DNA of 63,755 bases, filler included, from Chrysochromulina tobinii (lineage: Eukaryota): the NCBI GenBank assembly GCA_001275005.1. It is 5 parts of 5 records of this genome, joined end to end, with 100 filler letters (N's around TTAATTAATTAA, not from the genome) between each part and the next. Parts side by side here need not be neighbours in the genome. Positions count along the whole stretch, not along the records: positions 38,125 to 49,108 come from JWZX01000211.1; 4 more parts are not named here. One strand, given 5' to 3'. The notes beneath the pieces are model-generated. The model was not told the origin of the DNA and made no database searches. It saw only the letters and a program-made list of their open reading frames with translations. Positions 38,125-63,500 of the stretch are shown here, in pieces. Position 1 is the first letter of the stretch, and every line of letters starts with the position of its first letter. The position numbers were made by a program, and so were the translations under genes.

Positions 38125-38426
38125 CCGCAGCTTCGACAGTGCATGTGACAGCTGAGTGGGCCGTTGAGATGGCATCTTCGACAGTAACAGCTGAATGGGC
38201 CGTTGAAATGGCGACCCCGGAGCCCAAACTCGCGGTCGCAACTGAAGGTGGTGCCGATTCCAAGCTTGAGCATGCTTCTGGTGGAGACACCAGCGCGAGC
38301 ATGACCAGCACGGGTGGCCATGTTTCCCGCCTCGAGACCGAGCACATATAGGCTGCCGCCGACAAGACAAGCAGACAAGGAGGCGGGTGGCTGCTCTATC
38401 GCCCTCACCGCCGAGACCTGTCCGCT

Positions 38427-38598
38427 GACCGCTGTGGCTAGGCGGTCTGGAGAGAGTACTTGTGCAGTGAGTATGGGCCGCTGTGGCTAGTGGTGGTCCG
38501 TTGTGAGAGAGTATCGGTGGAGTGAGCGCAGACCGCTGTGGCTAGGCGGTCTGGAGAGAGTACTTGTGCAATGAGTATGGGCCGCTGTGGCTAGTGGT
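38427..38598. repeat. 68-bp direct repeat (38427-38494 and 38531-38598, one mismatch)
   Basis: GACCGCTGTGGCTAGGCGGTCTGGAGAGAGTACTTGTGCARTGAGTATGGGCCGCTGTGGCTAGTGGT occurs twice. Confidence 0.9.
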
Positions 38599-39883
38599 TG
38601 AGAGAGAGAGGGTGGGTTTTGCGGACGCAACCTCTCTTCACCTGGAGACCAACGAGGGACGTTCCAGTGCTCTGGAAGCGGCCTTGCTCTCCGGCCTCGC
38701 GATTTTCCAGCGGTTCTTCGCCAACCCCGGGATCTTGGCGACCAAGCACGCTGTCTTCGCCTCGCTCACGCTGTGCCTGTGTGAATTACCGGCTTACTTG
38801 GGTAGGGCCCAGGCCGTGGAACCGGGCACCGACGAGATCCCGGAGCTCCGTGAGAATTGGTTGTTCGATGCCGCTCAATGCGATCTGCTCTTCCAGGGTC
38901 GCATCTCGAAGATCGCCTGGTTCGGCCCGCTCGGCTCGCTGGGGCTGATGAACCTCGAGGCTGCCGAGCCCTTCGCCGAATGCCCGGCTGACCAGTTATA
39001 CGTCGTAGAGGCGGTGCTCGAGCAGATCATCCCATTCGTGAAAGCCACGATGATCGCGGCGGGTTGGGCGGCAGAGTCGAAGGGTGGCTTCACCTTGGTT
39101 GCCCTCTTCGAAAAGCAGCTAGCGCACGTCAAATGGATTCGCAAGCAGGGCGAGCTCGAGATTGGCGCTCTCCTGCCGCACGCGCAGCAAAACTTCGTCG
39201 AGGCGCTGCTGGCGTGCGATGCGACGCATGCGCGCATGCTGGCACACCCCGAACCCGCCGAGGCCAAGCTCGGCTGGCACCTGGCTTTTGACGGGCCCTA
39301 CGACAGGGCGATCAAGGAAAAGAAGACCGGCGTGACGCCCTTCATCAATATACGGCGCGCCTTCCCGGGCCTCTTGCCCCCGTCCGCGCCTCGCTCGGTC
39401 GCCGGCGTGGTCCTCCCCGAGCCCGTCGTTGCCGCCAAGGTCAAGGTCGGCAAGGGTAAAGGTAAGGGCGGTGGAGGAGGAGGCGGAGGCGGAAAAGGTG
39501 GCAAGGGCGAAGGGAAGGGCGAAGACGATGATGATGACAAGGTCGCCTTGAAGCCGGGCTCCCTGAAAGGGGTTGTCTCGTGGCCGGACCCGACCCACAT
39601 GCGGTTGGGCCATACGCTCTACGACACTGCCGCGATCGCAAGCCACTACTCCCTCGACGCGGACCATTGCTTCCCCGTTCTCTTGTCGATGAAACAGGGT
39701 AACGACAAGCATGCTCTGTGTGCGCACTGGGGAAAGCCCGGGCACACGTCGGGGACGTCGGAGAAGCACGCGCGCCCCAAGAACTTCGACCTCCGGTACG
39801 TCGATAAGCATCTGGCGACGCGTATGGATAAGACCGAGCAGGATGACACGAAGGGGGGCAAGAAGCGGAAGAAGCCTGGGTGA
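38564..39883 (+). CDS. Gag-like ORF1 of the YR retrotransposon (true start uncertain)
   Basis: Lies upstream of RT; basic Gly/Lys linker; C/H knuckle-like CFP...LCAHWGKPGH; basic C-terminus. The TTG start falls within the 68-bp repeat. Confidence 0.65.
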   Translation: MCNEYGPLWLVVERERVGFADATSLHLETNEGRSSALEAALLSGLAIFQRFFANPGILATKHAVFASLTLCLCELPAYLGRAQAVEPGTDEIPELRENWLFDAAQCDLLFQGRISKIAWFGPLGSLGLMNLEAAEPFAECPADQLYVVEAVLEQIIPFVKATMIAAGWAAESKGGFTLVALFEKQLAHVKWIRKQGELEIGALLPHAQQNFVEALLACDATHARMLAHPEPAEAKLGWHLAFDGPYDRAIKEKKTGVTPFINIRRAFPGLLPPSAPRSVAGVVLPEPVVAAKVKVGKGKGKGGGGGGGGGKGGKGEGKGEDDDDDKVALKPGSLKGVVSWPDPTHMRLGHTLYDTAAIASHYSLDADHCFPVLLSMKQGNDKHALCAHWGKPGHTSGTSEKHARPKNFDLRYVDKHLATRMDKTEQDDTKGGKKRKKPG

Positions 39884-39949
39884 GATGGCGCCAGCTGCGT
39901 CGGCGACGGACGTCTGGATCTCGGCCGAGGATCTGGATGTCTGTCGCAG

Positions 39950-42900
39950 GTGCAGCTGGTCGACGACGGCGCGGTTTTATCTCTCTGGTGTACCTTCATG
40001 GTATGGCTCGGCGTCTGGATCCGGATGAAGGCTCATGAAGGGGCCACGACACGTCGAGCTCTCCCTCCTTTGGAAGGCTCAATCTGCTATAACGAGCCGT
40101 CGGCTAGGCTGGCCGACGGCGCTGCGATCCGCGTGGATCGTGCACTGACTGTGACCTTGACATCGATGACATCGATGACTGTGATGCGACGGGCGCCGCC
40201 GGCTGCGATCCGCGTGGATCCAGCTGGCGGTGGCACCCGGGTGACGTCGATGACTGTGCAGCTGCGAGGGGCGCCGCCGGCTGCGATCCGCGTGGAGGCA
40301 GCTGGCGGCGACACCCGGGCTGCGATCCGCGTGGATCGCGCACTCGCAGCGCAGTCGCCGGTTCCCCTTCGGTCTGTGAGCGCTGCGCTCGCCGGCTCGA
40401 GCTCGCTGCTCGCCGGCTCACCATCTCGGCCCCGTGACTCGCGCATGACGCGCACCCGCGGAGGTGGTGAACCCGAAGAGGATGGTGTGTCCAGGCCTGC
40501 CCTGCACTCGAGCGTCCGCGTGGACCGGCGACTTCTGTCGTCGCCTGCGCTCTCGGCGACGCGTGCCCGAGAAGCGCAGGGCTCGGCGAGCGTCCTGCCT
40601 CTGTCGCCTTCTCATACTCTGTCGCGCCATGGATACATGGGCACGGAAGAGGGGCGTAGCGAGGCAGCGTCTCGGCCTCTTTCCACTCACGACGTTACCA
40701 CTGATTCTGCCCCTGCTGACACAGCGTTCGCGCGCTCCTGGTGCCGTTCTACCGAGGCGAGGGCGTGCTTCGACAGTTTCGCTTGGCCTCTGCGCTCACG
40801 CGCGGAAGTGTGCCGCCTGCTTGCCTCGCGCGTGCTGACACCCACGTGGCTGCTCCTGGGAGAGTTCAGTGGCGCCTTCTCTCGCGTCTGCGAGACGCAG
40901 CGGGGTGTGGTCGTCCTCTCGGTCGACTTGCGCGAGCCCGAGCGAGAAGGGCTCCACTTCTGCGGCTCTTTCCACGAGATTTTCGACCTCGCTGCGTGGG
41001 ACTTCGTGGCGGCATGGCCAAGCTGCACCCACACGGCCTACAGCAACGGTGACCTGCGCGTGGCCAAGGCGCTCGACGGGCGGGCGTTCTGGGGGCACGT
41101 GGGCGTGCTCTATGTGCTCCTCGCCGGCGAGGCGAAGGGACGCCTGGTCGAGCAGCCCGACTCAGATTTCCACCGCCTTTTCGCGACGCCGCGGGTACGC
41201 GTGCGGACCGAGCATTATGGGGATGCCCATGCCAAAACCATAAACCTCTATCTCGTCGGCGTCAGCCTGCCCGGACTCGCTGCTGAACATCGCACGGTGC
41301 CGCTCGCCGATCACGTGCGCCGCCCGGCTCACTGGGAATTTGCCGACGCCGAGGCGCGCGACCGCTTTCGCAGCTCTTGGGAGCATTTCCCTCTGTTCAT
41401 GAACGCCCTCGTGTTCTGCCTCTCGCTGTGCGAGGCGCCGCCTCCACCGACGCCGTTCGAGGAGGGCTTGGAGGCTCTGGCGTGTGCCTGGCACGATGCG
41501 GGCTGGCCGGTGCCGGCGGGCTACGACGCCTGCAGAGATGGCCTCCCCACCGACGCGGCCGCCCGAGAGTATCAAGCCGTGCGTGGACCGGGTGACAATC
41601 GTCGTCCCCCCAGAGTGATCCCGTTCGCCAGGAGGAGCGACCTAGCTTCGGACGGGCACACGCTGATCGCTCTGCCGCCGAGGGCCGAGGCTGGCGTCGC
41701 GGATCTGCGCCGACTCGCGTCGGCGCAGGTGGTCACGCTCGCCGAGCTTACGGCGAGCGGGGTGGCTCTCTTCTTTGTGACCTATCTACTGCAGCCCCTC
41801 GTGTTCGCGCATGTCAACGGCTTCCAGGTGCTGGGGGCGGAGCTCCCTATCACCAGCGGTCGCGCGACGCCTATGCGCCTGCTAGAGCAGTGGGCCGAGC
41901 TGGCGTTTTCGGCAGATGCCACTGCCACCACCTTCATGATTGGCCGCTACAGTCAGGACGGGCCTCGGCTGGGAGTGTGCTTGCTGCCCTTCGCGCCCGC
42001 TGCTTCGATGATCGTGCGCAATGTCGCCCAGCGGCGCCGGCGCCTTGGCCTGGGAGCGACCTTTCTTTGGTGCACCCTCGCCAGTTTGGCCGGGACTCTA
42101 CTGGCTGACCCAGTGGCGCGTGCCTTTGCCAGTGTCGAGGCAGCGGCTGGGCCGGTCACGCACATGCCTGATCTGATGCATGAGGGCGAGCTGCTCCACC
42201 CAGTCTTCCGAGTGGGCGCCACCCCGAGCGCGAGCATGGTCGGGATGCGCCCGATCTCGTACGACCCGGGGTCAGTGGGTCACGCGCTCCGCCGAGATGC
42301 CGCCCACCAGCTGCTACTTCGCCGCGAGCTCGAGGTCGGCGCGGGAGCCGACGACCCGCTGCTCAAAGGGTGGGCCGAGCGCATTCGGCCGCCGCCGCAG
42401 GAGCTGCTTGACTTGGTGCGAGTGCAACTGCCAGACATGCTCGCGCCTGATCTGCTTAGCCTGCCGTACACCCCGATCTACGTGCCGCCCGAGACGCCGT
42501 ACTTACCGCGCATGCCCGCCCAGCTGCCAGCGGTGACGCCCTTCTGTGTACGCTCTGCGATGGAGCTGCTTGAAGACGCGGCGCGCCACAGTGTCCACTC
42601 GTGGCTCTCGCGCGCGCTCGATCAGCTCCGCTGCATCGAGGAACACCCGCGAGAGCACACTGGCTGCGAGCTCCTGCGACCGCCGCCGCTTGTGCTTGGT
42701 CAGGAAGCCATGCTACCGTGGGCACGAGGGCGAGTGTGGGACCTCACGTTCGAGCGAGCCAGCTGCGCCGTGCCGCTAGACATGACGCTGCCGCTGGATT
42801 CGAACTTCGACCTGTCCCGCCTGCGCGAGCGGCTTCACGGCTACCCCGACCAGAATCTGATCTCGAACCTTTTGGAGGGTATCCGCTTCGAGGCCGACGT

Positions 42901-45136
42901 CGAGCTCCAGACGGTATTGGTGCCCCACCTCATCTCGTTGCCCATGGGCTTCGCTTCGGTACGGAATGAACTGTACCGTCTCCAGACGCTGGGATGGTAC
43001 AGGTTCTTCGACGGGCTGCCGTTCTGGCCGATCTACATCAACGGCCAGGGAGCGACGTCGCGCAAGATGGAGGACCGCTACCGGCGGACCACGGAGTGCG
43101 GAGGGCCGCGGCGCCCGACATTTGACGGCAGCGGGCTGCGCGCGCTCTCGCTCAACGAGGCCTCGAGGGTCCGGCACATGCCGATCTGGTACCAGCTTCG
43201 ATTCGACCCGCCGTGGCAGAAATACCTTCAAGAACGGGCGCTCGACGTACCTCTCGAGTGGGGTATGCCTTCGCAACGTCCGCCGGAGCTCAAGCCGACG
43301 CTCAAAGGGGTCATGCGAGACCTCTCTATCCTGCTGGCGGCGGCGCGCCACCTCGACGAGCCCCTTTACGTCTTCGGCGACGACGCCAAGGACTATTTTA
43401 ACCAGCTCGCGATAGCTTCGGAGGACTGGTGGAAACTGGGCGTCGTCTTCCTTCACGCAGAGGAAGTCGGAGCGCCGCGCTCGGCGCATGAGCGGCTCTT
43501 CTTCGTCTCCGAGCGGCGCCTGGGCTTCGGCGCACGCCCGTCGTCGAACATTGCGCAGCGGTTCAGCGAAGCGCTCCTGCACTTCCTGCGGCAAGACATG
43601 GACGCCGCCGAGGCGGGTGTACCTGTCGACGTGCGACCATCCGCCGCGTACTGGCGCGCCGCTCGCGCCTCGATCCACCGACAGGAGCCAGCAGAGCACC
43701 TAGCCCAATCTCGCCTCTACATCGCGCACATGTACACCGATGACCCCATCTTTGCAGTCGTCGGGGTGCAGCGAGCGATACGGCTGCTCAAAGCCTGGAT
43801 GCGCCTGGTCACCGAGCTGCGTATGATCATGGCCATCGAGGAGAAGCGACATTTAGGCACGTGGGTGCCCTGGCTGGGCGTTCTCCTGCTCGCCGGTTTG
43901 GGCATGGTGCTCATACCCAAAGCCAAACTACTACGCACCGTGGAGCGGGTCGACGAGCTGCTCACGAACGGCATGCCCTTCCAGGACTATCGCTCGCTCG
44001 TCGGCCTGCTTGAGCACCTGCGGTGCATCTACGGTGCTCAGCGATCGGCCATGTACGGCCTCTATGCCCCGCACGGCTCCCTCCGTGTGCGCCTCGAAGG
44101 ACCAGCCGCGCTTATCCGCCCGAACGGGTTCCAAACCGAGCAGCTCCAGCGGCACCGCAAGCTGCTCATGAGTACGGGAGGCGCGCCGGTGACGGCGGCC
44201 CTGCGACGTGGCGACGGTGCGGCGGCTCCGCCCTTTGCGGTCAAATTCGTGGTATCTGCCGACGCGGCCACCGACAGCGCACCGCCAGGCATCGGCGGTT
44301 TCTGCCACGGGCTCTATTGGTATGCCCCGATCCAGGAAGAGTGGCTACTGTACCTGCACATCACTGTGCTCGAGCTGCTCGCCACGGGGCTGGGCGCCAT
44401 CATCCTAGCGCCGTACCTACGGCACGCCCAACGCATCCGCTTGCAAAGTGACGCGCTAGCGACCCCTTTTGTGCTATCTCGCCATGGAGCGCACAGCGCA
44501 ATGCTCATGCTGGCTCACCACCGGCTGCTGCAGGACGACCGCTATGCCGCCGTAGCGGCGAACGCCGACATCCAGCACCTCGACGGCGACAGTAACGCCT
44601 TCAGCGACAGCGTGTCGCGAGGGCTCTGGCAACGCTTTCTTCTGCTCTGCCGCGCCGCGAACATACAGCCAGTGCGAGTGCAAGTGCCGCAGCATGCCCT
44701 GGAGCTCCTGCGCGGGGTGGCGGATGAGGCGCGCCTCGCCGGCGTGCAAATACGACGATCGCAGTACGTGCGCCCGAGCCCAGTATTGCCACCGGCGATG
44801 CTCATGCTCGGCCGCCGCTCGACAGCCTGCGAAGAAGCCGATGCCGTAGCGAAGATCAGCCCTCGCCTGGCGGCGGCGCTGCGCGCGGCGGTAGTGGCAC
44901 AGCCCGAGCGCACAACGCACGGTACGCCGGCGGCGCGAGCCATCTCTGCGCGGCTGGCCAGCCGTCTCCGCGGGGAAGTGGCGGCAGAGCCGCCCAAGCA
45001 ATCGACGCCGAACATGCCATCGATGGCCGCGCCCAAAGCCGCCCAGGTGCGCCCCGCGTGCACCGACCGAACGGGTCGTCGCCCCTCGCCCGCTAGCCGC
45101 AAGGCAAGGGAAGCTCTCGCTCACCACCATAGGTAA
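39950..45136 (+). CDS. Pol: cytosine-methyltransferase-like domain + reverse transcriptase + RNase H
   Basis: RT: FGDDAKDYFNQL (~43379), LGFGARPSSNIAQRFS, MYTDD (43733-43744). RNase H: VSADAATD, ITVLELLA, LQSDA, SNAFSDSVSR. MTase-like domain at 40847-41410. Confidence 0.9.
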   Translation: MQLVDDGAVLSLWCTFMVWLGVWIRMKAHEGATTRRALPPLEGSICYNEPSARLADGAAIRVDRALTVTLTSMTSMTVMRRAPPAAIRVDPAGGGTRVTSMTVQLRGAPPAAIRVEAAGGDTRAAIRVDRALAAQSPVPLRSVSAALAGSSSLLAGSPSRPRDSRMTRTRGGGEPEEDGVSRPALHSSVRVDRRLLSSPALSATRAREAQGSASVLPLSPSHTLSRHGYMGTEEGRSEAASRPLSTHDVTTDSAPADTAFARSWCRSTEARACFDSFAWPLRSRAEVCRLLASRVLTPTWLLLGEFSGAFSRVCETQRGVVVLSVDLREPEREGLHFCGSFHEIFDLAAWDFVAAWPSCTHTAYSNGDLRVAKALDGRAFWGHVGVLYVLLAGEAKGRLVEQPDSDFHRLFATPRVRVRTEHYGDAHAKTINLYLVGVSLPGLAAEHRTVPLADHVRRPAHWEFADAEARDRFRSSWEHFPLFMNALVFCLSLCEAPPPPTPFEEGLEALACAWHDAGWPVPAGYDACRDGLPTDAAAREYQAVRGPGDNRRPPRVIPFARRSDLASDGHTLIALPPRAEAGVADLRRLASAQVVTLAELTASGVALFFVTYLLQPLVFAHVNGFQVLGAELPITSGRATPMRLLEQWAELAFSADATATTFMIGRYSQDGPRLGVCLLPFAPAASMIVRNVAQRRRRLGLGATFLWCTLASLAGTLLADPVARAFASVEAAAGPVTHMPDLMHEGELLHPVFRVGATPSASMVGMRPISYDPGSVGHALRRDAAHQLLLRRELEVGAGADDPLLKGWAERIRPPPQELLDLVRVQLPDMLAPDLLSLPYTPIYVPPETPYLPRMPAQLPAVTPFCVRSAMELLEDAARHSVHSWLSRALDQLRCIEEHPREHTGCELLRPPPLVLGQEAMLPWARGRVWDLTFERASCAVPLDMTLPLDSNFDLSRLRERLHGYPDQNLISNLLEGIRFEADVELQTVLVPHLISLPMGFASVRNELYRLQTLGWYRFFDGLPFWPIYINGQGATSRKMEDRYRRTTECGGPRRPTFDGSGLRALSLNEASRVRHMPIWYQLRFDPPWQKYLQERALDVPLEWGMPSQRPPELKPTLKGVMRDLSILLAAARHLDEPLYVFGDDAKDYFNQLAIASEDWWKLGVVFLHAEEVGAPRSAHERLFFVSERRLGFGARPSSNIAQRFSEALLHFLRQDMDAAEAGVPVDVRPSAAYWRAARASIHRQEPAEHLAQSRLYIAHMYTDDPIFAVVGVQRAIRLLKAWMRLVTELRMIMAIEEKRHLGTWVPWLGVLLLAGLGMVLIPKAKLLRTVERVDELLTNGMPFQDYRSLVGLLEHLRCIYGAQRSAMYGLYAPHGSLRVRLEGPAALIRPNGFQTEQLQRHRKLLMSTGGAPVTAALRRGDGAAAPPFAVKFVVSADAATDSAPPGIGGFCHGLYWYAPIQEEWLLYLHITVLELLATGLGAIILAPYLRHAQRIRLQSDALATPFVLSRHGAHSAMLMLAHHRLLQDDRYAAVAANADIQHLDGDSNAFSDSVSRGLWQRFLLLCRAANIQPVRVQVPQHALELLRGVADEARLAGVQIRRSQYVRPSPVLPPAMLMLGRRSTACEEADAVAKISPRLAAALRAAVVAQPERTTHGTPAARAISARLASRLRGEVAAEPPKQSTPNMPSMAAPKAAQVRPACTDRTGRRPSPASRKAREALAHHHR

Positions 45137-45275
45137 GCTGCGCCTCCTTGCTCTCCCCCGACCGGTCACCGCGGCGCCTTCGCCGGCTCGCGACGCGCTA
45201 AGAGCCGCCGCGGGCACGCAAGCGCACAGGCGTGCCGCTCTTTTCGCCAAGGCCGGCTTTGGTGCCAACCACAAC

Positions 45276-46802
45276 GTGGACCAGCTCGCAGAACTTCTCA
45301 AGCATGCAAGTGACCTGCCAGACTTCGGAGTCTCGCACGGCACCAGACGGAAAAACGAAGCGGCGTGGGCGCACTGGGAACAGTTTTCAGAACTAGTCGG
45401 CTTCGACCCGCTGCTCTCCGCAGAGCAAGCGCGCAACTACCCCAGTGAAGTTGGCACTTTGCTTGCCACCTTCTTGCTCTATATCTATCCCAAGATGAAG
45501 GGCAAGCGCGGCCGGCAATGGGCCTCTCCGCGCAGCGCGTTCGCCTATGTCTTGTCGATCATCCGAATCTTCCGAGAGTGGAAGATCATTCTGCCGCCCG
45601 CAAAAGTCGTGCAAGGCGAGCTGCACGGTCTGCTACGCGCTTTCGTCGGTGTGTACGGAGCGCACGCCCTGATGCCCCAGAGACGCGAACCCTTCCGCTT
45701 CTCCATGGTGCAAGACCTGCTCAGGCACCCGAAGGACCGGCTTGGCGCACGCAGCTACGATCCAGCCAGTACCATCGGGTGGGCCTTTCGAGGCATGCTT
45801 GCGCTCGGCTGGCGCACCGGCCATCGATTGGCCGAATTCGTCGCCCACCCGTCGGGCGAAGTGTGCTACGTAACGCGCCACGACGTGACGTACCTGATCG
45901 CAGGTGTGCCCGTCGCAGACCCGACGCCGGCGCAGCTCGCCCTGCTGCGTCCCGGCGACACGATCCTCATAGCGCCACCGCGTTCAAAGACGGACCAGTT
46001 TGGAGAAATCCACTCCCCCTTCCCATCGGCGATCGCCTACTCCGCCGATACCAACAGCGCCGGCTACATCATCCAGCAAATCGAACTCCTGCGACCTGTG
46101 CACGGACGCAGCCGAGAGAGCACGCCGCTGTTTGCCGATGAGTCGGGCCTGCCCTACACGCACAGCGTCATGGACACGCTCCTGCACGCCGCCCTCGTGC
46201 GCCTGTACGGCGAGCAGGTAGCCTCATGCTACTCGTGGCATTCGCTTCGCTCTGGCCTCGCCACGGCGCTCAAGGCGGCAGGTTGCGCCGACGACGTCAT
46301 ACAGATGATATGCCGCTGGGCAAACCCGGAGTCGCTCAAGGTTTATGCCCGCCACGGCACATCGCTGCACATAAACTGGGTAGACCGCGCCGAAAAAGCC
46401 GTGATCGACGCGATCCTATCCTCCAGTGTGCCAAAGGTGTGCAACAGCGAAGGCAACATCGCCCTGCAGCACCACTTCGGAGGCACCGTCCCAACGCGGG
46501 CCAGACACGTTCTCGACAACGCAGACCGGGATGCAGGCGATGCAACCGCCCCACCGCCGGCGCCCCCCGATGCGTCCCCGCTCACCCACACCAACGCCAC
46601 AGGGCGTCGCGTGCGAGTGCCCGCGGCATGCTGGCCGACCTACCCCTGCACCGAACACGCAGGGCTCGGTTGGACGGCGCACATCATCTCGGTGCACCAA
46701 CCAACCAGCGCCGCAACCCTACGCTTCGCCGAAGCAACGGATGACCGCGGCCTCCCTTTCGCAGATGTCCAGCTCCACCTAGGAACCCTCGTACCTTTCT
46801 AA
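45276..46802 (+). CDS. Tyrosine recombinase ORF3 (frame open from 44895)
   Basis: Catalytic R (TGHRLAE), K (RSKTDQ), HxxR (HSLR, 46239), RW and Y (LKVY, 46344). Confidence 0.92.
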   Translation: MDQLAELLKHASDLPDFGVSHGTRRKNEAAWAHWEQFSELVGFDPLLSAEQARNYPSEVGTLLATFLLYIYPKMKGKRGRQWASPRSAFAYVLSIIRIFREWKIILPPAKVVQGELHGLLRAFVGVYGAHALMPQRREPFRFSMVQDLLRHPKDRLGARSYDPASTIGWAFRGMLALGWRTGHRLAEFVAHPSGEVCYVTRHDVTYLIAGVPVADPTPAQLALLRPGDTILIAPPRSKTDQFGEIHSPFPSAIAYSADTNSAGYIIQQIELLRPVHGRSRESTPLFADESGLPYTHSVMDTLLHAALVRLYGEQVASCYSWHSLRSGLATALKAAGCADDVIQMICRWANPESLKVYARHGTSLHINWVDRAEKAVIDAILSSSVPKVCNSEGNIALQHHFGGTVPTRARHVLDNADRDAGDATAPPPAPPDASPLTHTNATGRRVRVPAACWPTYPCTEHAGLGWTAHIISVHQPTSAATLRFAEATDDRGLPFADVQLHLGTLVPF

Positions 46803-46990
46803 CTCCATATCCACGTCACAGACCAGCCGTCGTCGACGAACGGCAGCCTTCATGAAACGCCTCGAGCGTGGATAACTCGGCTGCCAGCAAAACAATAACC
46901 CACCCTCCCACCCTATATGGGATTCTACACCAGTGACCGCACGACGCCGCCCAACCGCCAATACCACCGCCCCTCGGCACACCACACTAT

Positions 46991-47460
46991 GGGACTCAGA
47001 GCCAGCCCCTGGCCGGCTCTCGGGGCTGTTTATTCATAACCATCCCTTTAAGTGTGATGCACAGAGAAGACGGTGAGTTCTAGCGCCTCGGCGCTAGATT
47101 GGTTGTCTTCCAGGGCAAACAACGCAACTTTGGGCGGAGGCGCGGCGGCTCGACTAGCCGACCGCGCCGGCGGGCGGGTATGCATGCATGCATGATACAT
47201 ATCATAACCCTCAGGTAACAGTCTGTACTATTCCTGTGGGAAAAGCGCAAGTGTGAGGGGACCTCGTCGCTAGGCCTTGTCGCTTTCGTGCCACGCGCCT
47301 GTGTGAGATCGCCCCGAGCGGCTCTCTCACCGCGTGTTTGTCGTGCCCCACCCTCCCGGACCCGTACTGTCTAGAATAGGGGACTCAGAGCCAGCCCCTG
47401 GCCGGCTCTCGGGGCTGTTTATTCATAACCATCCCTTTAAGTGTGATGCACAGAGAAGAC
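46991..47460 (+). repeat. Split direct repeats: B1 46991-47071, A2 47072-47379, B2 47380-47460
   Basis: Identical 81-bp sequence GGGACTCAGAGCC...CACAGAGAAGAC occurs twice, 308 bp apart. Confidence 0.92.
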
Positions 47461-47532
47461 CTCTTCACATGTTCGGGCGCGGAAAGATTCGTCAGGCAAA
47501 AGTCTGGAACGAGAGCGACCCTTCCAAAGGTG

Positions 47533-47832
47533 ATGCGCAGCGTTCTTGCGTTCCTCCTCGCGAGCTCGGCGAGTGCGCTGCAGCTATCCTCGCCCAAAGC
47601 CCTTCTGCACAAGTACAAGAAAGAGTTCTGAGGCGGGTGAGGGTACAAGAAGTAGGCGACAGCTCTCGAGGAATACGTGGCCGGGCGATTTGGTTTCAGC
47701 GTGGCATTCTCATGCCTCAAAGCGCCCACGACGACTGGCTGCTTTGAGGTGTCGGTCGCCCTTCCCGGAGTTTCGTCGTGGCCGCCCCCGCCAGTGGCGG
47801 AGAAGAATTATCTGTTGACGGTTGTCCATTGA
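47533..47832 (+). pseudogene. SelW/Rdx-family selenoprotein-like frame with UxxU motif, likely degenerate
   Basis: MRSVLAFLLASSASA-LQ...EF(TGA)GG(TGA)GYKK(TAG)ATALEEYVAGRFG...TTTGCFEVSV aligns by eye to SelW YCGAUGY...TGFFEVMV. Confidence 0.7.
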
Positions 47833-47856
47833 GTTCACCCTGGCTGCAGGGGCCCC

Positions 47857-47971
47857 AAAACACGAAAACACAAAACACAGCCCACAGGCGAGCAAGGCCA
47901 AAACACAAAAACACAAAACACACGCCCTGCGGGCGAGGCTAAAACACGAAAACACAAAGCACCAAAACACA
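47857..47971. repeat. Three blocks of AAAACAC(G/A)-type repeats
   Basis: AAAACACGAAAACACAAAACAC-like block occurs three times with short GC-rich spacers. Confidence 0.85.
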
Positions 47972-47986
47972 GGGGGGATCAAGGGC

Positions 47987-48213
47987 TCATTTGGTTTTCG
48001 ACCACCTTTTTGGTGTAAAATGGCGACTTCGCGGCCGTCCCGCGCGGCCGAGCGCGTACATGCGGGGGCGCGAGACTTTCAGGGATGCTAAATCAACCCA
48101 CCGTCCGGGTCCGGTACCGCTTCTCCGAGCTCAACGCGTGCGCGCGCTGGCGCTGAAGAGCTTCATCTTGAGAGCACCAAGCTCTTTTCAGCAGATGGTC
48201 GAAAACCAAATGA
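47987..48213. mobile_element. MITE-like element (227 bp) with 18-bp terminal inverted repeats
   Basis: TCATTTGGTTTTCGACCA (47987-48004) and TGGTCGAAAACCAAATGA (48196-48213) are perfect inverted repeats, flanked by AGGGC/AGGGT (possible TSD). Confidence 0.7.
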
Positions 48214-48474
48214 AGGGTATGTTGGTGCTTCACTGCCGCTCCTGCGCATGCGCCCTGCTAGCCATGAGCATCTTGTAACGTAACTGTAACACCGGACGGC
48301 ATGCAATTCTTCGTCGGGCGGGCGTTGGCCGTTTTGTAACGAAACTGTAACACTTGTTACTGCGTCTCGATCAGCTTCCGGCAAAGTCTCATCCGTCGCT
48401 GTATTGCGTCTTGCCCTCTTGCCTGCGTCGCTGAAGGACCACCCATACTGTAACATTTTGCGACTCTTGTCGAT

Positions 48475-49108
48475 ATGCGCCCCACGACCCTTCTCCGTGC
48501 GGGGCTGCTGCTTGCAGTGGCCTCTGGACAGCTGCCCCCCCCGCCGGCGTCGCCCCCCCGGCCGCCATCGCTGCCGCCTAATTGCCGCTGCAACAACGAG
48601 TGTTTGGGAGCTCCCCAGTACGCCGAGGACGGCACCTGCGACGACGGCGGTGTGGGCAGCACATATTCTGACTGCGAGCTAGGCACGGACTGCGAGGATT
48701 GTGACTTCCAAGTACGCTGCTTGGTGCCGCCGAGTCCGCCGCCGCAGCCACCCAAGCTGCCACCAGATCCCCCGCCGAGGTCGCCGTCGCCATGCCCCCC
48801 GCCATGCCCCCCACCTCCACGTGCGCTGTCGCCACCGCCACCTCCGCCATCCCCATCGCCGCCTCCGCCGTCTCCGCCTCCGCCGTCGCCATCGCCGCCT
48901 CCACCGTCGCCATCGACGCCTGCGCTGTCGACCCCACAACGGCCGCCACCGCCGCCTGCAACAACGCCGCAGCTTCCGGCGCATTGCACGTGCAACGACC
49001 TGTGCGTTGGCAATCCCACCTTCGCCTCTGATGGCTTTTGCGACGACGGCGGTCCCGGAGCAAGCTTTGCTGAATGCGATCCCGGCACGGATTGCCAGGA
49101 CTGCGGGG
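48475..49108 (+). CDS. Secreted Pro-rich protein with two Cys-rich CDDGG repeats, 3'-partial
   Basis: Signal peptide MRPTTLLRAGLLLAVASG; two copies of CxCNxxC...DGxCDDGGxG...CxxGTDCxDC; runs into the contig end. Confidence 0.85.
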
Positions 49109-59622: not shown

Positions 59623-60534
59623 CTAGGCATGGTGCTGGCTGCTGCCGGCCTGGAAAGTGAGCAGGGCAGCGCGCGCAGAGCCGATCAACCCCTCGATCAA
59701 CCCCACGTTGGCCACTCGCAGATCTTTGTCGTGGCACTTCTCAGTCTGCCCAGAGCCAAGTGTTTCAATCTCCACCGTATAAAGTGCCATCTCTGCATCG
59801 TACTCCTTCACATAGGCGAGAGTCTCCGCTCCGTTGCTGCGCTTCATGAACACGCTGCTGCCGATGGCGTAGCGCAGCGCAAGGGCGGGGACGGGATGGG
59901 GGCCCGCCGATGCAACCGCCCTTTCCATGAATGGGACATGTTTATTGATCTCTTCCAAGATCTCATCCAGAGCTTCGGGCACCGTGAGCAACGTGCCGGC
60001 ATCTGGGATGTCATTGATCTTGCCGAGGTGCTCCTGCACTTTGGCGATCATCACCTCGGAATCCTGGTCCGTGAGCTTCTTCCACTGGTCTTGCTTGTCG
60101 GGCAGATTCTCCTCAAGGACGATGGGTATCACGGGAATCTTCTTATCGATGGCACAGCTGAGCTCCTTCAAACAGGGCTCGGACTCGTAAAAGGCCTTAG
60201 TCTTCAGGACGATCAGCACCTTGGCCTTTGCATGTCGCCCCTTGAGACGCAGCATGAACACTTCCCAGTCGACGCCGGCGGGGACGTGCAGCCCACTGAA
60301 GCATTGCAGGCCGCACTGATGGAGGACCTCAAGAAACCCCGCCGCATAAAACATGCCTGGCCCGGCGCTCCATCCAACATGGGCGGTCCATACGGCTCTC
60401 GTTATCCATACTGATGAGTCCCGACGTCGACCCGTTGCGTGTGACACCACCACTTTGGGATAGTATTCGTCTGGGCGGGAAGAGTGTTCCGTGTCTGATT
60501 TCTGATTGCCCCGCGGACTGGTTTGAATGCTCAC
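59623..60534 (-). CDS. Second TIR-like domain plus small beta-barrel-like domain (probably the 3' part of the upstream receptor gene)
   Basis: Near-copy of the upstream TIR (VVVSHA...AKVLIVLKTKAFYESEPCLKELSCA...IPVIPIV). It is in the same frame as the upstream ORF and has no ATG before the domain. Confidence 0.75.
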   Translation of the reverse strand: MSIQTSPRGNQKSDTEHSSRPDEYYPKVVVSHATGRRRDSSVWITRAVWTAHVGWSAGPGMFYAAGFLEVLHQCGLQCFSGLHVPAGVDWEVFMLRLKGRHAKAKVLIVLKTKAFYESEPCLKELSCAIDKKIPVIPIVLEENLPDKQDQWKKLTDQDSEVMIAKVQEHLGKINDIPDAGTLLTVPEALDEILEEINKHVPFMERAVASAGPHPVPALALRYAIGSSVFMKRSNGAETLAYVKEYDAEMALYTVEIETLGSGQTEKCHDKDLRVANVGLIEGLIGSARAALLTFQAGSSQHHA

Positions 60535-60540
60535 GCAGGC

Positions 60541-63500
60541 TCACGCGTCCAGCTCGGCCTCAAACTCGGCAAAGAAGTTGGCGATATCTGCCTCCTGCAG
60601 CATCGAGCCGACAAGGTCCTCACCCAGATGCGGCATCACGACTGGGGCCCCTATGCCAGGCTCGCTCCGAGAATTCCAGCCCTCCGGCAGGGTCGCCGAT
60701 CTATAGGTTGGAGCGATGGAGGTCGCCAAGGTATGGGTTGATGCGCAGTGGGTCGCCGAGGTATCGGTGGGTGCGCAGTAGGTCGCCGAGATCAAGGTTG
60801 GCGCCGCGGTTGCGCCCGCCTGTCCAATAGCATCAGCTCGACGCAGCTGCGCCGAGGGGCGCGATGCGCGCACACTGCCCTTTATGCGCTGGAGCTCGTC
60901 TACGATAGAAGGGAACGTAGGCCGTTGAACAGGATCGGTCTGAAGGCACCGGGTGGCAAGCGCGAGGATGCCAGGTGGGCAGCCGGCCGCATTGCGCAGC
61001 TGGTCGAGCGGGGTGGCTTGACCTCTGACAATGATCGCCATGAGCGCATGCGCAGTGTCCTTCGGAGGCAGTTGCACATGGCTGTACGGTATGGACCGCG
61101 TCCCCATATGTGTGAGCAGGCATCCGAAGCTCCACACGTCGGTGGGCTTGGCTTTTGCGCCCGAGGTGAGTGCAATCGCCTCGGGAGCCATGTAGGGCGG
61201 CGTGCCCGCGGGCCCCTCGGCCTGCCCGGCATACTTGGTGAGTGCGGTGCCAAAGTCAGCCACCTTGGCGACCCAGTGCTCCGTGAGTAACACGTTGCCA
61301 GGCTTCAGGTCGCGATGGACCACGTCCATCGCATGTAGGTACGTCATGCCCTTGGCCACATCGAAGGCGATGAGGACGAGGGATGCCTCCCACGTGGCGA
61401 GCTGATCGCGCTGCCGGTGGTGATGCAGCACATCGAGCAACGACGAAGGCATGAGCTCCATCAGAATGCCCGTCTTCCCGTTGTTGCCGTCGTGTGCAAT
61501 GCCCATGGTGAGGAGCACATTGGGGTGGTGCAGGCGCATCGTGAGCTCAAACTCGTTGAGGAGCTCTTGTAGCGCCGCCGGCGTGGTCGCTGCCCGTAGG
61601 CTCTTGATGGCGCATGGGGTCGAGTTCCACACGGTGGCGGCACGCACCTCGCCAAAGCTGCCCGCTCCGAGACTCTCTTTGAGTGCCAGGTCTTTCCAGC
61701 TCACCACCACGTGCATCGAGCTTCCTACGATGCTCGACATCTCAGTGCCGCTTCCCTTCGGTGGTGGTGAGCGCGGTGGCTTTGAGCGCAATGGCTGTGA
61801 GCGCTTCGAGGAGATCGGGATCATGCGGCTCCAACCGCCCCGTTTCGCGGCAAAGTTTTGTGTGGCCAACGTCGTGAGCTCCTGGGCCTTAGTTGTGACA
61901 TGCTTATTGATCTCCTCGAGGATCTCGTCCAGAGTAATGGGCACGGTGCGCAACGTGCCGGGGCTTGGGATGTCATTGATCTTGCCGAGGTGCTCCTGCA
62001 CTTTGGCGATCATCACCTCGGAATCCTGGTCCGTGAGCTTCGACCACTGCTGTTTGGGGCCGGGCAGATTCTCCTCGAGGACAATGGGTATCACGGGAAT
62101 CTTCTGATCGATGGCACAGCTGAGCTCCTTCAGACAAGGCGCGGACTCGTAGAACGACTTGGTCTTGAGGACGATCAGCACCTTGGCCTTTGCATGTCGC
62201 CCCTTGAGACGCAGCATGAACACCTTCCAGTCGGTCCCTGGGGGGACGTGCAGCCCGCTGAAGCATTGCACGCCGCACTGATCGAGGAAACTGATGAAAC
62301 CCGCCGCATAATACATGCCTGGCCCGGCGCCTTGGCAATCCTGCTCACGGCGACCCGTCGCATACGAGATCACCGCTTCAGGATAGTATCGGTCGAAAGC
62401 CGTGCCCCTTGGCACGAGCGAGCGTACATAGCTCTTCCTTTTCTGCGCCATCTCCTCTGTGATGATGGGTGGCACCATGAAGGCCTCAGCACAGAACTTG
62501 GTCAACATGTCGTCCCTCTCAGTCTCTGCTTTCTGAGCTTTGGCCCTCCTGGCCGCTTTCGTTACCTGTCCGCCCTTGGCTCGGCGCATGAAGGCCAGGG
62601 CAAGGATAACTGCGATGATCACACCGACGACGACGCCGACGATGATGCCGATGGAGCCGCTCGTCTCGACTGCTCCGGCCGACATTGGTGACATGGGTGG
62701 AGGAGGCGACGGTGATGGCGGTGGCGGTGGTGGGACGTCTGCGATGGTGGGTGGCGTCACCGCGAGCACGGCAATGGAGACGCCGGTGATGTTCGCGAGC
62801 ATGGCGGTTGCGCTGCTCGGGCTGCTCGTCGCGCTGGCCATTGTCGACTGCACCGAGGCCGCCGTCGCCGTGGTCGTCTGGATGCTCACGACGACGATGA
62901 CGCTGCCTGGCGAAATGGTCAACTCCACCTCCGATAGGCCGACGCCGGCGCGAGCCGCGACTGCTCTCTGCATCTGGGCCTGCACGCTCAGGGTGAACGA
63001 GGAGACGTCGCCGTCGAGCTCGAGGGTGAAACCGACGACGCTCATCGCCGGCGGCGATGGCGGCGGCGAGGGCAGGGGCGAGGGCGGCGGCGGTGGTGAG
63101 GGCGAGGGTGGCGGCGGCGAGGGCGGCGGCGGCGGCGGGAGCGAGGTCGGAGGCGAGGGCGGCGGGGGCGAGGGCGGAGGCGGTGGTGAGGGCGAGGGCG
63201 GAGGCGGCGAGGGCGGAGGTGGTGGTGAGGGCGAGGGCGGAGGCGGCGATGGCGGCGGCGGTGGTGAGGGTGAGGGCGGAGACGGTGAGGGAGGCAGCGG
63301 CGACCCGTTCATGACAAACAGCTGCGTGGCCGACAGGTACTCAAAGTGTTCATCAAGCGCGGGGTTCGCTAGCGTTGAGAGGCAGGTCTTATAGAGACCG
63401 GTGGTGGAAAGCTGGACCGAGATGGCGCCGTTGCTGATCGTGCCGCCCAACTGCGTGGCACGCGCGAAAGCTGCGCCTGCGCAGGTCCGGGAGCCGGCAG

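Follow-up and report, generated by a model that had tools for sequence, protein, structure and literature searches.

The cytosine methyltransferases (MTases) of retrotransposons reported so far are of DNMT3 type, sisters of DNMT4 or members of an orphan Symbiodinium lineage, and DIRS, long interspersed nuclear element (LINE) and Gypsy elements bearing DNMTs have been described (PMC5890265). Among them, SymbioDIRS-Dnmt3 of dinoflagellates features A-coding-B-A-B repeats, a divergent reverse transcriptase (RT), a C5-MTase under purifying selection within the Pol open reading frame (ORF) and coexisting relatives without MTase; its enzyme is a eukaryotic DNMT3 detectable by PF00145, and its tyrosine recombinase (YR) is encoded by a separate ORF (PMC5890265). 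DAM-carrying DIRS and long terminal repeat (LTR) elements and EpiLTRs share with the present case the single capture of a prokaryotic-type DNA methylase followed by shuffling, but the former encode adenine MTases and the latter a cytosine MTase sister to DNMT4 (10.64898/2026.05.21.726589). The element described here lies in Chrysochromulina tobinii (assembly GCA_001275005.1), in record JWZX01000211.1, which provides positions 38,125 to 49,108 of the window, i.e. of the whole 63,755-nucleotide stretch analysed. It is a split-direct-repeat YR retrotransposon, the pol of which encodes a phage-family C5-MTase of about 190 aa, invisible to PF00145 and followed by a Nudix-like fold, with the YR in the same ORF. 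While retrotransposons carrying DNMT3- and DNMT4-like enzymes were already known, a phage-type donor would be new: a literature search, with supplements, subscription journals and Repbase outside its scope, found no phage-type C5-MTase in a retroelement.

A compact cytosine methyltransferase of phage family

The MTase domain is located at 40847..41410 on the plus strand, corresponding to aa 322-509 of a 1750-codon ORF (39884-45136). The motifs quoted in an earlier reading of this DNA by sequence alone (the original prediction) were all located in this ORF, in the pol frame: GEFSG (40859), SVDLR (40919), WPSCT, VEQPD (41147, with the Glu at 41150), KTINL (41234) and RDRFRSSW (41357). The catalytic Cys is retained, as had been stated, its codon being at 41024. 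The announced change of ENP to EQP was seen in all 27 element domains compared, while that of PC to SC is better described as PPC to PSC: the motif is altered, but Pro and Cys are both kept.

These 27 domains derive from a metagenome scan, in which 53 loci were confirmed out of 277 pattern matches; clustering at 90% gave 30 groups, three of which, partial or broken, were dropped. The RT is present in 36 of the 53 loci and the YR in 27, most of the 17 loci without RT ending soon past the MTase. A profile search of 1.84 billion representatives detected 143 clusters (50% identity) at E<=1e-30.

The domain belongs to the C5 DNA methyltransferase superfamily and, within it, to the phage family phrog_757, in agreement with the compact phage enzyme originally proposed. 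The window sequence matches the PHROGs profile phrog_757, DNA methyltransferase (E 1e-8 over 174 residues), and a tblastn search against phages returned 26 records, the best being 'DNA cytosine methyltransferase' genes of Pseudomonas Pf inoviruses (E 2e-6). At E<=1e-3 the same profile detects 20 of the 27 element rows and all 17 phage rows aligned with them, and a profile-profile alignment of element and phage sequences gave a probability of 99.7 and an E of 3e-26. In the ESM Atlas the domain scored 0.96 to viral clusters, one third of the cluster members carrying PF00145. PF00145 itself matched none of the 27 element rows at E<=0.1 and one of the 17 phage rows, at 0.014. No Pfam match was obtained for the pol, MTase, Nudix region or gag of the window, the YR region excepted (PF00589), and PDB sequence searches, with either the MTase domain or the profile of alignment A2, returned nothing relevant.

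An AlphaFold model of the domain, based on the 27 element and 17 phage rows, reached a predicted local distance difference test score (pLDDT) of 95. Compared with 48,161 chains, its top 18 matches were all C5 DNA or tRNA MTases (Z 8.9-11.8, 180-195 residues aligned); DNMT3B was found at Z 11.8 (root-mean-square deviation, rmsd, 3.7; 187 aligned) and M.HhaI at Z 10.4, while other Rossmann MTases, the next fold, reached Z 7.4 or less. The expected C5-MTase Rossmann fold was thus recovered, with motifs arranged as I-VIII, target-recognition domain, IX-X.

The phrog_757 enzymes, such as those of Burkholderia Bcep1 (gp12), Prochlorococcus P-SSP7 (gp12), Pseudomonas Pf inoviruses and Arthrobacter phages, share with the element domain motif order, length, fold and the invariant Cys, Glu and Lys. 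They are, however, stand-alone proteins of about 180-230 aa, featuring ENP and having a function assigned by annotation, whereas the element form is fused, features EQP and RxRxRSSW, and is followed by an extension of about 60 aa (41447..41626, plus strand), which aligns across elements (alignments A2 and A3) and is absent from phage enzymes. The extension is confidently modelled, and few structural matches cover it. The original prediction described the MTase as fused N-terminally to the RT: it does lie upstream in the same pol, but the fusion is not direct, because MTase and RT are separated by a domain of Nudix fold plus some 330 more residues.

Methylation of new cDNA as a proposed function

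In all 27 element domains the motif-II Asp, the Cys, the Glu-Gln pair, the motif-VIII Lys and the motif-X Arg-Ser are invariant, and the motif-I Glu is kept in 25; among 150 listed representatives, the Cys is found in 139 of 140 covered rows and the Glu in 139 of 139, counts which lean towards conservation because the rows were chosen by the profile. The Cys and the S-adenosylmethionine (SAM)-binding motifs are conserved across the family, and their loss, which the original prediction would have taken as contrary evidence, was not observed. In a divergent subgroup of elements (P0203, P0205, P0211, P0214) motif I is altered and motif IV reads MPCE, with the Cys retained. The RT profile is matched by 26 of the 28 listed representatives with at least 500 residues after the MTase, and one more contains, by eye, a different DIRS-like RT.

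The MTase is under purifying selection. Of 27 pairs compared, the 10 with a synonymous rate (dS) of 0.1-1 gave nonsynonymous to synonymous ratios (dN/dS) of 0.07-0.13, against 0.04-0.07 for the RT where present; only two subfamilies are represented among these pairs, which lack the lineage of the window and are not independent of one another.

We lean towards the view that the phage-type MTase, placed at the front of Pol, methylates cytosines of the element's own new double-stranded cDNA, before the recombinase would insert the copy. The tethering to RT and YR suggests an action in cis, and tethering, intact chemistry and selection, taken together, point to methylation of the new cDNA. Motifs VIII and X are separated by about 45 residues, where the target-recognition domain would be, so that specificity is likely short or relaxed. 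Among the possible benefits, a naked new copy could look like methylated host DNA, or be shielded from nucleases or deaminases; the benefit would be conditional, since sister elements spread without MTase. Haptophyte genomes feature broad, DNMT5-type gene-body 5-methylcytosine (5mC; PMC12344493), which a pre-methylated copy would resemble. SymbioDIRS-Dnmt3 performs de novo CG methylation in yeast, and methylation of cDNA has been proposed for it (PMC5890265).

Several observations weigh against this reading, in addition to the choice of rows and the narrow base of the dN/dS pairs. One near-identical pair has a dN/dS of 0.76, and the motif-III Asp, kept in 26 of the 27 domains, is replaced by Ser in the window copy and by Ala in P0004. 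No experimentally tested member of the phrog_757-type phage family was found in the literature, and the accessible text of PMC4738411, PMC3627910 and PMC6338049 contains nothing on this MTase family. Any double-stranded substrate may be short-lived, since the cDNA of DIRS-1 consists mostly of linear, single-stranded molecules (PMC7192593). The element is not depleted in CpG (observed/expected 1.15, versus 1.10-1.16 in the host), nor are CpG transitions in excess when copies are compared (112/807 vs 208/1433, p 0.71). Over five pairs, transitions at C before C are in slight excess on the plus strand (101/564 vs 219/1676, p 0.005), with 42/196 vs 147/933 (p 0.06) on the minus strand; we regard this as a lead only: neither MTase-less elements nor the host provided a control, and host DNA is just as poor in CC.

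Also to be counted against cDNA methylation is the frequent absence of the domain from close relatives. A search with the RT profile, limited to proteins of 698-2000 aa, retrieved 82 proteins, and an RT tree of 70 rows was built, 18 of 88 having been left out as near-duplicates or for want of upstream sequence. The MTase is scattered through a 59-row clade of this tree. Within the 17-row subclade of the window, 13 rows are without MTase, 2 carry it and 2 are unknown in this respect; the nearest sister (94% RT identity) is missing precisely the MTase and the extension. Absence from other copies, which the original prediction regarded as a reason to abandon it, is thus partly observed. Since deletion breakpoints vary among relatives, deletion appears to have been repeated; the length limits, by favouring shorter proteins, inflate the share without MTase. 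Absence from many close relatives makes the MTase dispensable, not unreal.

That the MTase is decaying cargo in the lineage of the window, though functional elsewhere in the family, is unlikely but fares best among the alternatives. Only two of the 17 subclade rows keep the domain, the breakpoints differ, the motif-III Asp is lost in both keepers, and dN/dS between the window and L031 is 0.28 (RT 0.21; dS near saturation). On the other hand the ORF is intact, Cys and Glu are kept, identity to P0004 is similar for MTase (75%) and RT (80%), and the limits of the RT search favour the shorter, MTase-less proteins.

A little less probable is an active methylase with a different target, which could be the packaged RNA of the element or host DNA, whether at the site of insertion or elsewhere. 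The MTase closes the gag ORF instead of opening pol in one subfamily (L057, L059, L062-L066, P0010), in P0140 it is positioned after the RT, and SymbioLINE-Dnmt failed on DNA in yeast, RNA having been suggested as substrate (PMC5890265). Methylation of cDNA is favoured over such targets by the nearest relatives, which are stand-alone genes of DNA phages, by the best-matching folds, which are DNA MTases, and by the tethering to RT and YR found in most elements.

We consider it quite improbable that the domain is a DNA-binding or base-flipping module, steering integration or reading host methylation, with catalysis secondary. The EQP found in every element domain, the added extension and the adjoining non-catalytic Nudix fold could suit such a role; but Cys, Glu and SAM-site residues, which decay in eukaryotic pseudo-DNMTs, are here invariant or nearly so over deep divergence, and no obvious shared target was found in the flanks of four complete copies.

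Origin and distribution of the domain

All MTase copies found in elements have a single origin. In two trees, which took in element, phage, rV5-like and T1-like sequences and no eukaryotic DNMTs, and were rooted on the rV5-like and T1-like MTases, element domains form one clade (100/100), joined to phage enzymes. Overall identity between element and phage proteins is 25-40%, rising to 36-40% for early-branching elements; one of these, the MTase-Nudix-like-RT protein P0195, is 36% identical to a phage enzyme over 200 aa (E 4e-39). The elements fall within the phages in a quick tree, but phage monophyly is not rejected by the approximately unbiased (AU) test (p 0.56).

Stand-alone phage relatives, mostly of 180-230 aa, were found at 53 IMG/VR loci and in 128 named phage records at E<=1e-30, including cyanophages and Pelagibacter, Flavobacterium and Pf phages. 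All ten viral loci checked have phage-family neighbours, four of them with a terminase, and the profiles for RT, YR, Nudix-like domain, OTU-like domain and extension had no match on the 53 viral loci. The breadth of the phage family and the phage outgroups point to a transfer from phage to element, presumably one ancient capture from a phage or prophage. Some phage members belong to small single-stranded DNA phages with circular double-stranded intermediates (L082, a Pf phage; L086, Microviridae). The m5C MTases of Paracoccus prophages, which have relaxed specificity, were also considered and set aside, since in the accessible text of PMC3925955 and PMC6536676 they are not shown to belong to this family.

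The least probable of the alternatives is a donor other than a phage, be it a DNMT3-like gene of a eukaryote or a virus of the giant or polinton-like kind: the best PDB folds are DNMT3A/B (Z 11.7-11.8), the AU test leaves nested and sister placement undecided and PF00145-type DNMTs occur in the same RT clade, but structure-based identity to DNMT3 is 11-16%, well under that to phage enzymes, M.HhaI also scores highly, the best viral-model match is a 249-aa Caudovirales protein (E 2e-11, versus E 1e-5 to 6e-5 for the best eukaryotic-virus models), and the viral loci have the phage neighbours described above. An unsampled eukaryotic virus is a possible go-between. An independent capture of a phage methylase by a YR element, as originally proposed, is supported as to the phage family and as to its distinctness from the Dam-like domain of DIRS and from DNMT3-type captures; the interpretation as a whole is supported in part.

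For 33 elements, 13 of 30 splits are common to the MTase tree and the RT tree, and the distances are correlated (Mantel rho 0.46; 0/999 permutations as high), suggesting mostly joint descent, with deep branches unresolved or shuffled. In three deeper relatives (P0069, P0080, P0081) the corresponding position upstream of the RT is occupied by a PF00145-type DNMT, a further methylase capture within the RT clade and distinct from that of the phage-type enzyme.

The assignment to haptophytes, part of the original prediction, is supported for relatives, by three named proteins from Prymnesium sp. metagenome-assembled genomes, two with MTase and one with its extension; two further relatives bear bacterial labels, which we take as binning errors. 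DNA of the window occurs in mixed-culture metagenomes and freshwater metatranscriptomes, and a haptophyte is its likely host. Scans able to reach close relatives only, of viral contigs with the element-specific pattern RDRxRSSW (33 stretches) and of prokaryote genomes with exact window peptides (136 stretches), gave no confirmed case.

The carrying element and its cargo

In other assemblies of the locus, MTase, extension, Nudix-like fold, RT, RNase H and YR follow each other in one ORF. In the window this pol polyprotein (39884..46802, plus strand, as are all features below) is broken by one extra C at 45052-45055. The extra base is absent from two other assemblies (L029, L030), which have a single 2305-codon ORF, and from Logan contigs of runs X1 and X8 over 43138-46175, which show one gap (3037 vs 3038 bases); pol and YR are likewise fused in protein P0003. 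The separate YR ORF of the window is therefore only apparent, the extra C being most likely an assembly error or possibly a strain variant.

The preceding gag (38642..39883) retains about 410 C-terminal codons, 39-42% identical to the C-terminal half of gag in L031-L033, where gag ORFs are 775-957 codons long; full gags reach about 870-960 codons. Clear gag homology begins near 38640 (ORF residue 33-35), the 5' end and the left repeat A1 being missing; a full gag had no usable match in the ESM Atlas. At 3 of 9 junctions (39881-39886 in the window, and in L033 and L041) the gag stop is followed at once by in-frame pol, and readthrough is possible.

The divergent RT core (42830..43900) features DAKDYF (43382; conserved as DxKDYF), LGFG (43520) and YTDD (43733). 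It has no Pfam match in the window, and weak PF00078 matches in relatives. The segment 44255..44620, with acidic residues in SADAATD, VLELLA, LQSDAL and NAFSDSVSR and no profile match, is assigned, by eye and by its motif pattern, as an RNase H-like domain; about 200 low-complexity residues separate it from the YR (45300..46450; PF00589 E 2e-5, phrog_1 E 8e-6), which has HSLR at 46239 and the catalytic Tyr, in KVYARH, at 46338. Gag, RT, RNase H (by motif alone) and YR are all present, as in YR retrotransposons (order DIRS); in place of the inverted terminal repeats and internal complementary region of strict DIRS1-like elements, direct split repeats are found. A Dam-like domain after the RNase H gave no Pfam match in 14 pol ORFs, although a divergent version could escape.

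At the right end, repeats B1 (46988..47071) and B2 (47377..47460, the end of the element), of 84 nt and 99% identical, flank the inferred repeat A2 (47072..47376), no second copy of which exists within the window; the layout A1...B1-A2-B2 is known from complete relatives (L063, L065, L066, L070, L049). Identity between A1 and A2 is 100% in L066 and in L070, and no target duplication is present at L063 and L070. By layout rather than by RT placement, these relatives resemble Ngaro and PAT/TOC1-type elements, which have A1-ORFs-B1A2B2, gag, RT-RNase H, YR and no target duplication, although the window retains B1-A2-B2 alone; Ngaro differs in lacking an MT domain and encoding its YR in an ORF of its own, and PAT in having a DIRS-type MT after the RNase H (PMC3266345, PMC8547959).

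The window copy is truncated at its 5' end and likely unable to move by itself. Logan contigs bridge the truncation junction at the depth of the body (about 120 in X1, 38 in X8), and L029 and L030 hold the truncated element together with its left and right flanks; both observations fit a single locus. In two DNA runs the depth of the terminal repeats (46788-47453) is about 20 times that of the body, pointing to many related or non-autonomous ends. The 8-mer CTCTTCAC is found on both sides of the truncated element (38634-38641 and 47461-47468), and a diverged Logan contig links 38638 directly to 47495. Truncation and a repeat resembling a target duplication suggest that an incomplete cDNA was captured at a DNA break, and not integrated by the recombinase. 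Contigs from RNA runs cover parts of the MTase (40945-41261 in X13, 40896-41086 in X18), but cannot show transcription. Circularly permuted contigs (L033, L038, L047) and the tandem pair L055/L056 were rejected as evidence of circles, because repeat collapse yields the same picture. Elsewhere in the window, two paralogous ORFs (59626-62688, minus strand) look TIR-like by eye.

The domain between MTase and RT (41750..42160) is likely a Nudix fold: its model (pLDDT 79) has a best match at Z 9.0 (rmsd 3.7, 116 aligned) and most of its top 50 structures are Nudix folds, Foldseek matches being weak (best E 3e-3). No conserved acidic columns or Glu cluster were found in the 20 rows of alignment A5; judged against the Nudix box pattern, the catalytic box is missing and the domain is predicted to be non-catalytic. 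It precedes the RT in most of the clade, MTase-less elements included. NADAR (E to 6e-44), deoxynucleoside kinase (E 2e-22), DUF4326 and OTU-like domains are further polyprotein cargo, carried, as grouped, by P0036, P0057, P0084, P0140 and L078; L039 and P0090; P0035, P0043 and L074; and P0008-P0010. The OTU-like Cys-His domain was recognised by eye only; it precedes the MTase at the gag end of L057, L059 and L062-L066, and in L067 and L070-L072 the segment is inverted. Among the titles of one literature listing, none concerned NADAR in retrotransposons.

A broader picture can be put forward tentatively: an old, very diverse and so far undescribed haptophyte YR clade would have captured a minimal phage methylase once and employed it to write de novo, with low specificity, on its cDNA, amid anti-host cargo (NADAR, OTU-like, Nudix-like, deoxynucleoside kinase), and the resulting marks might give rise to heritable or non-CG methylation where maintenance otherwise depends on DNMT5. 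If true, this would make the domain the first 5mC writer of phage origin to operate in a eukaryotic retroelement, and one of the smallest natural C5-MTases; with about 190 aa and almost no target-recognition domain, it is also of interest as an enzyme. Two surveys were screened with PF00145 (PMC5890265, PMC12344493), which misses this family entirely, so counts of eukaryotic 5mC writers are incomplete. Near-identical sisters with and without MTase, fusions to either gag or pol, and a PF00145-type DNMT at the corresponding position make the family a natural experiment on why retroelements carry methylases.

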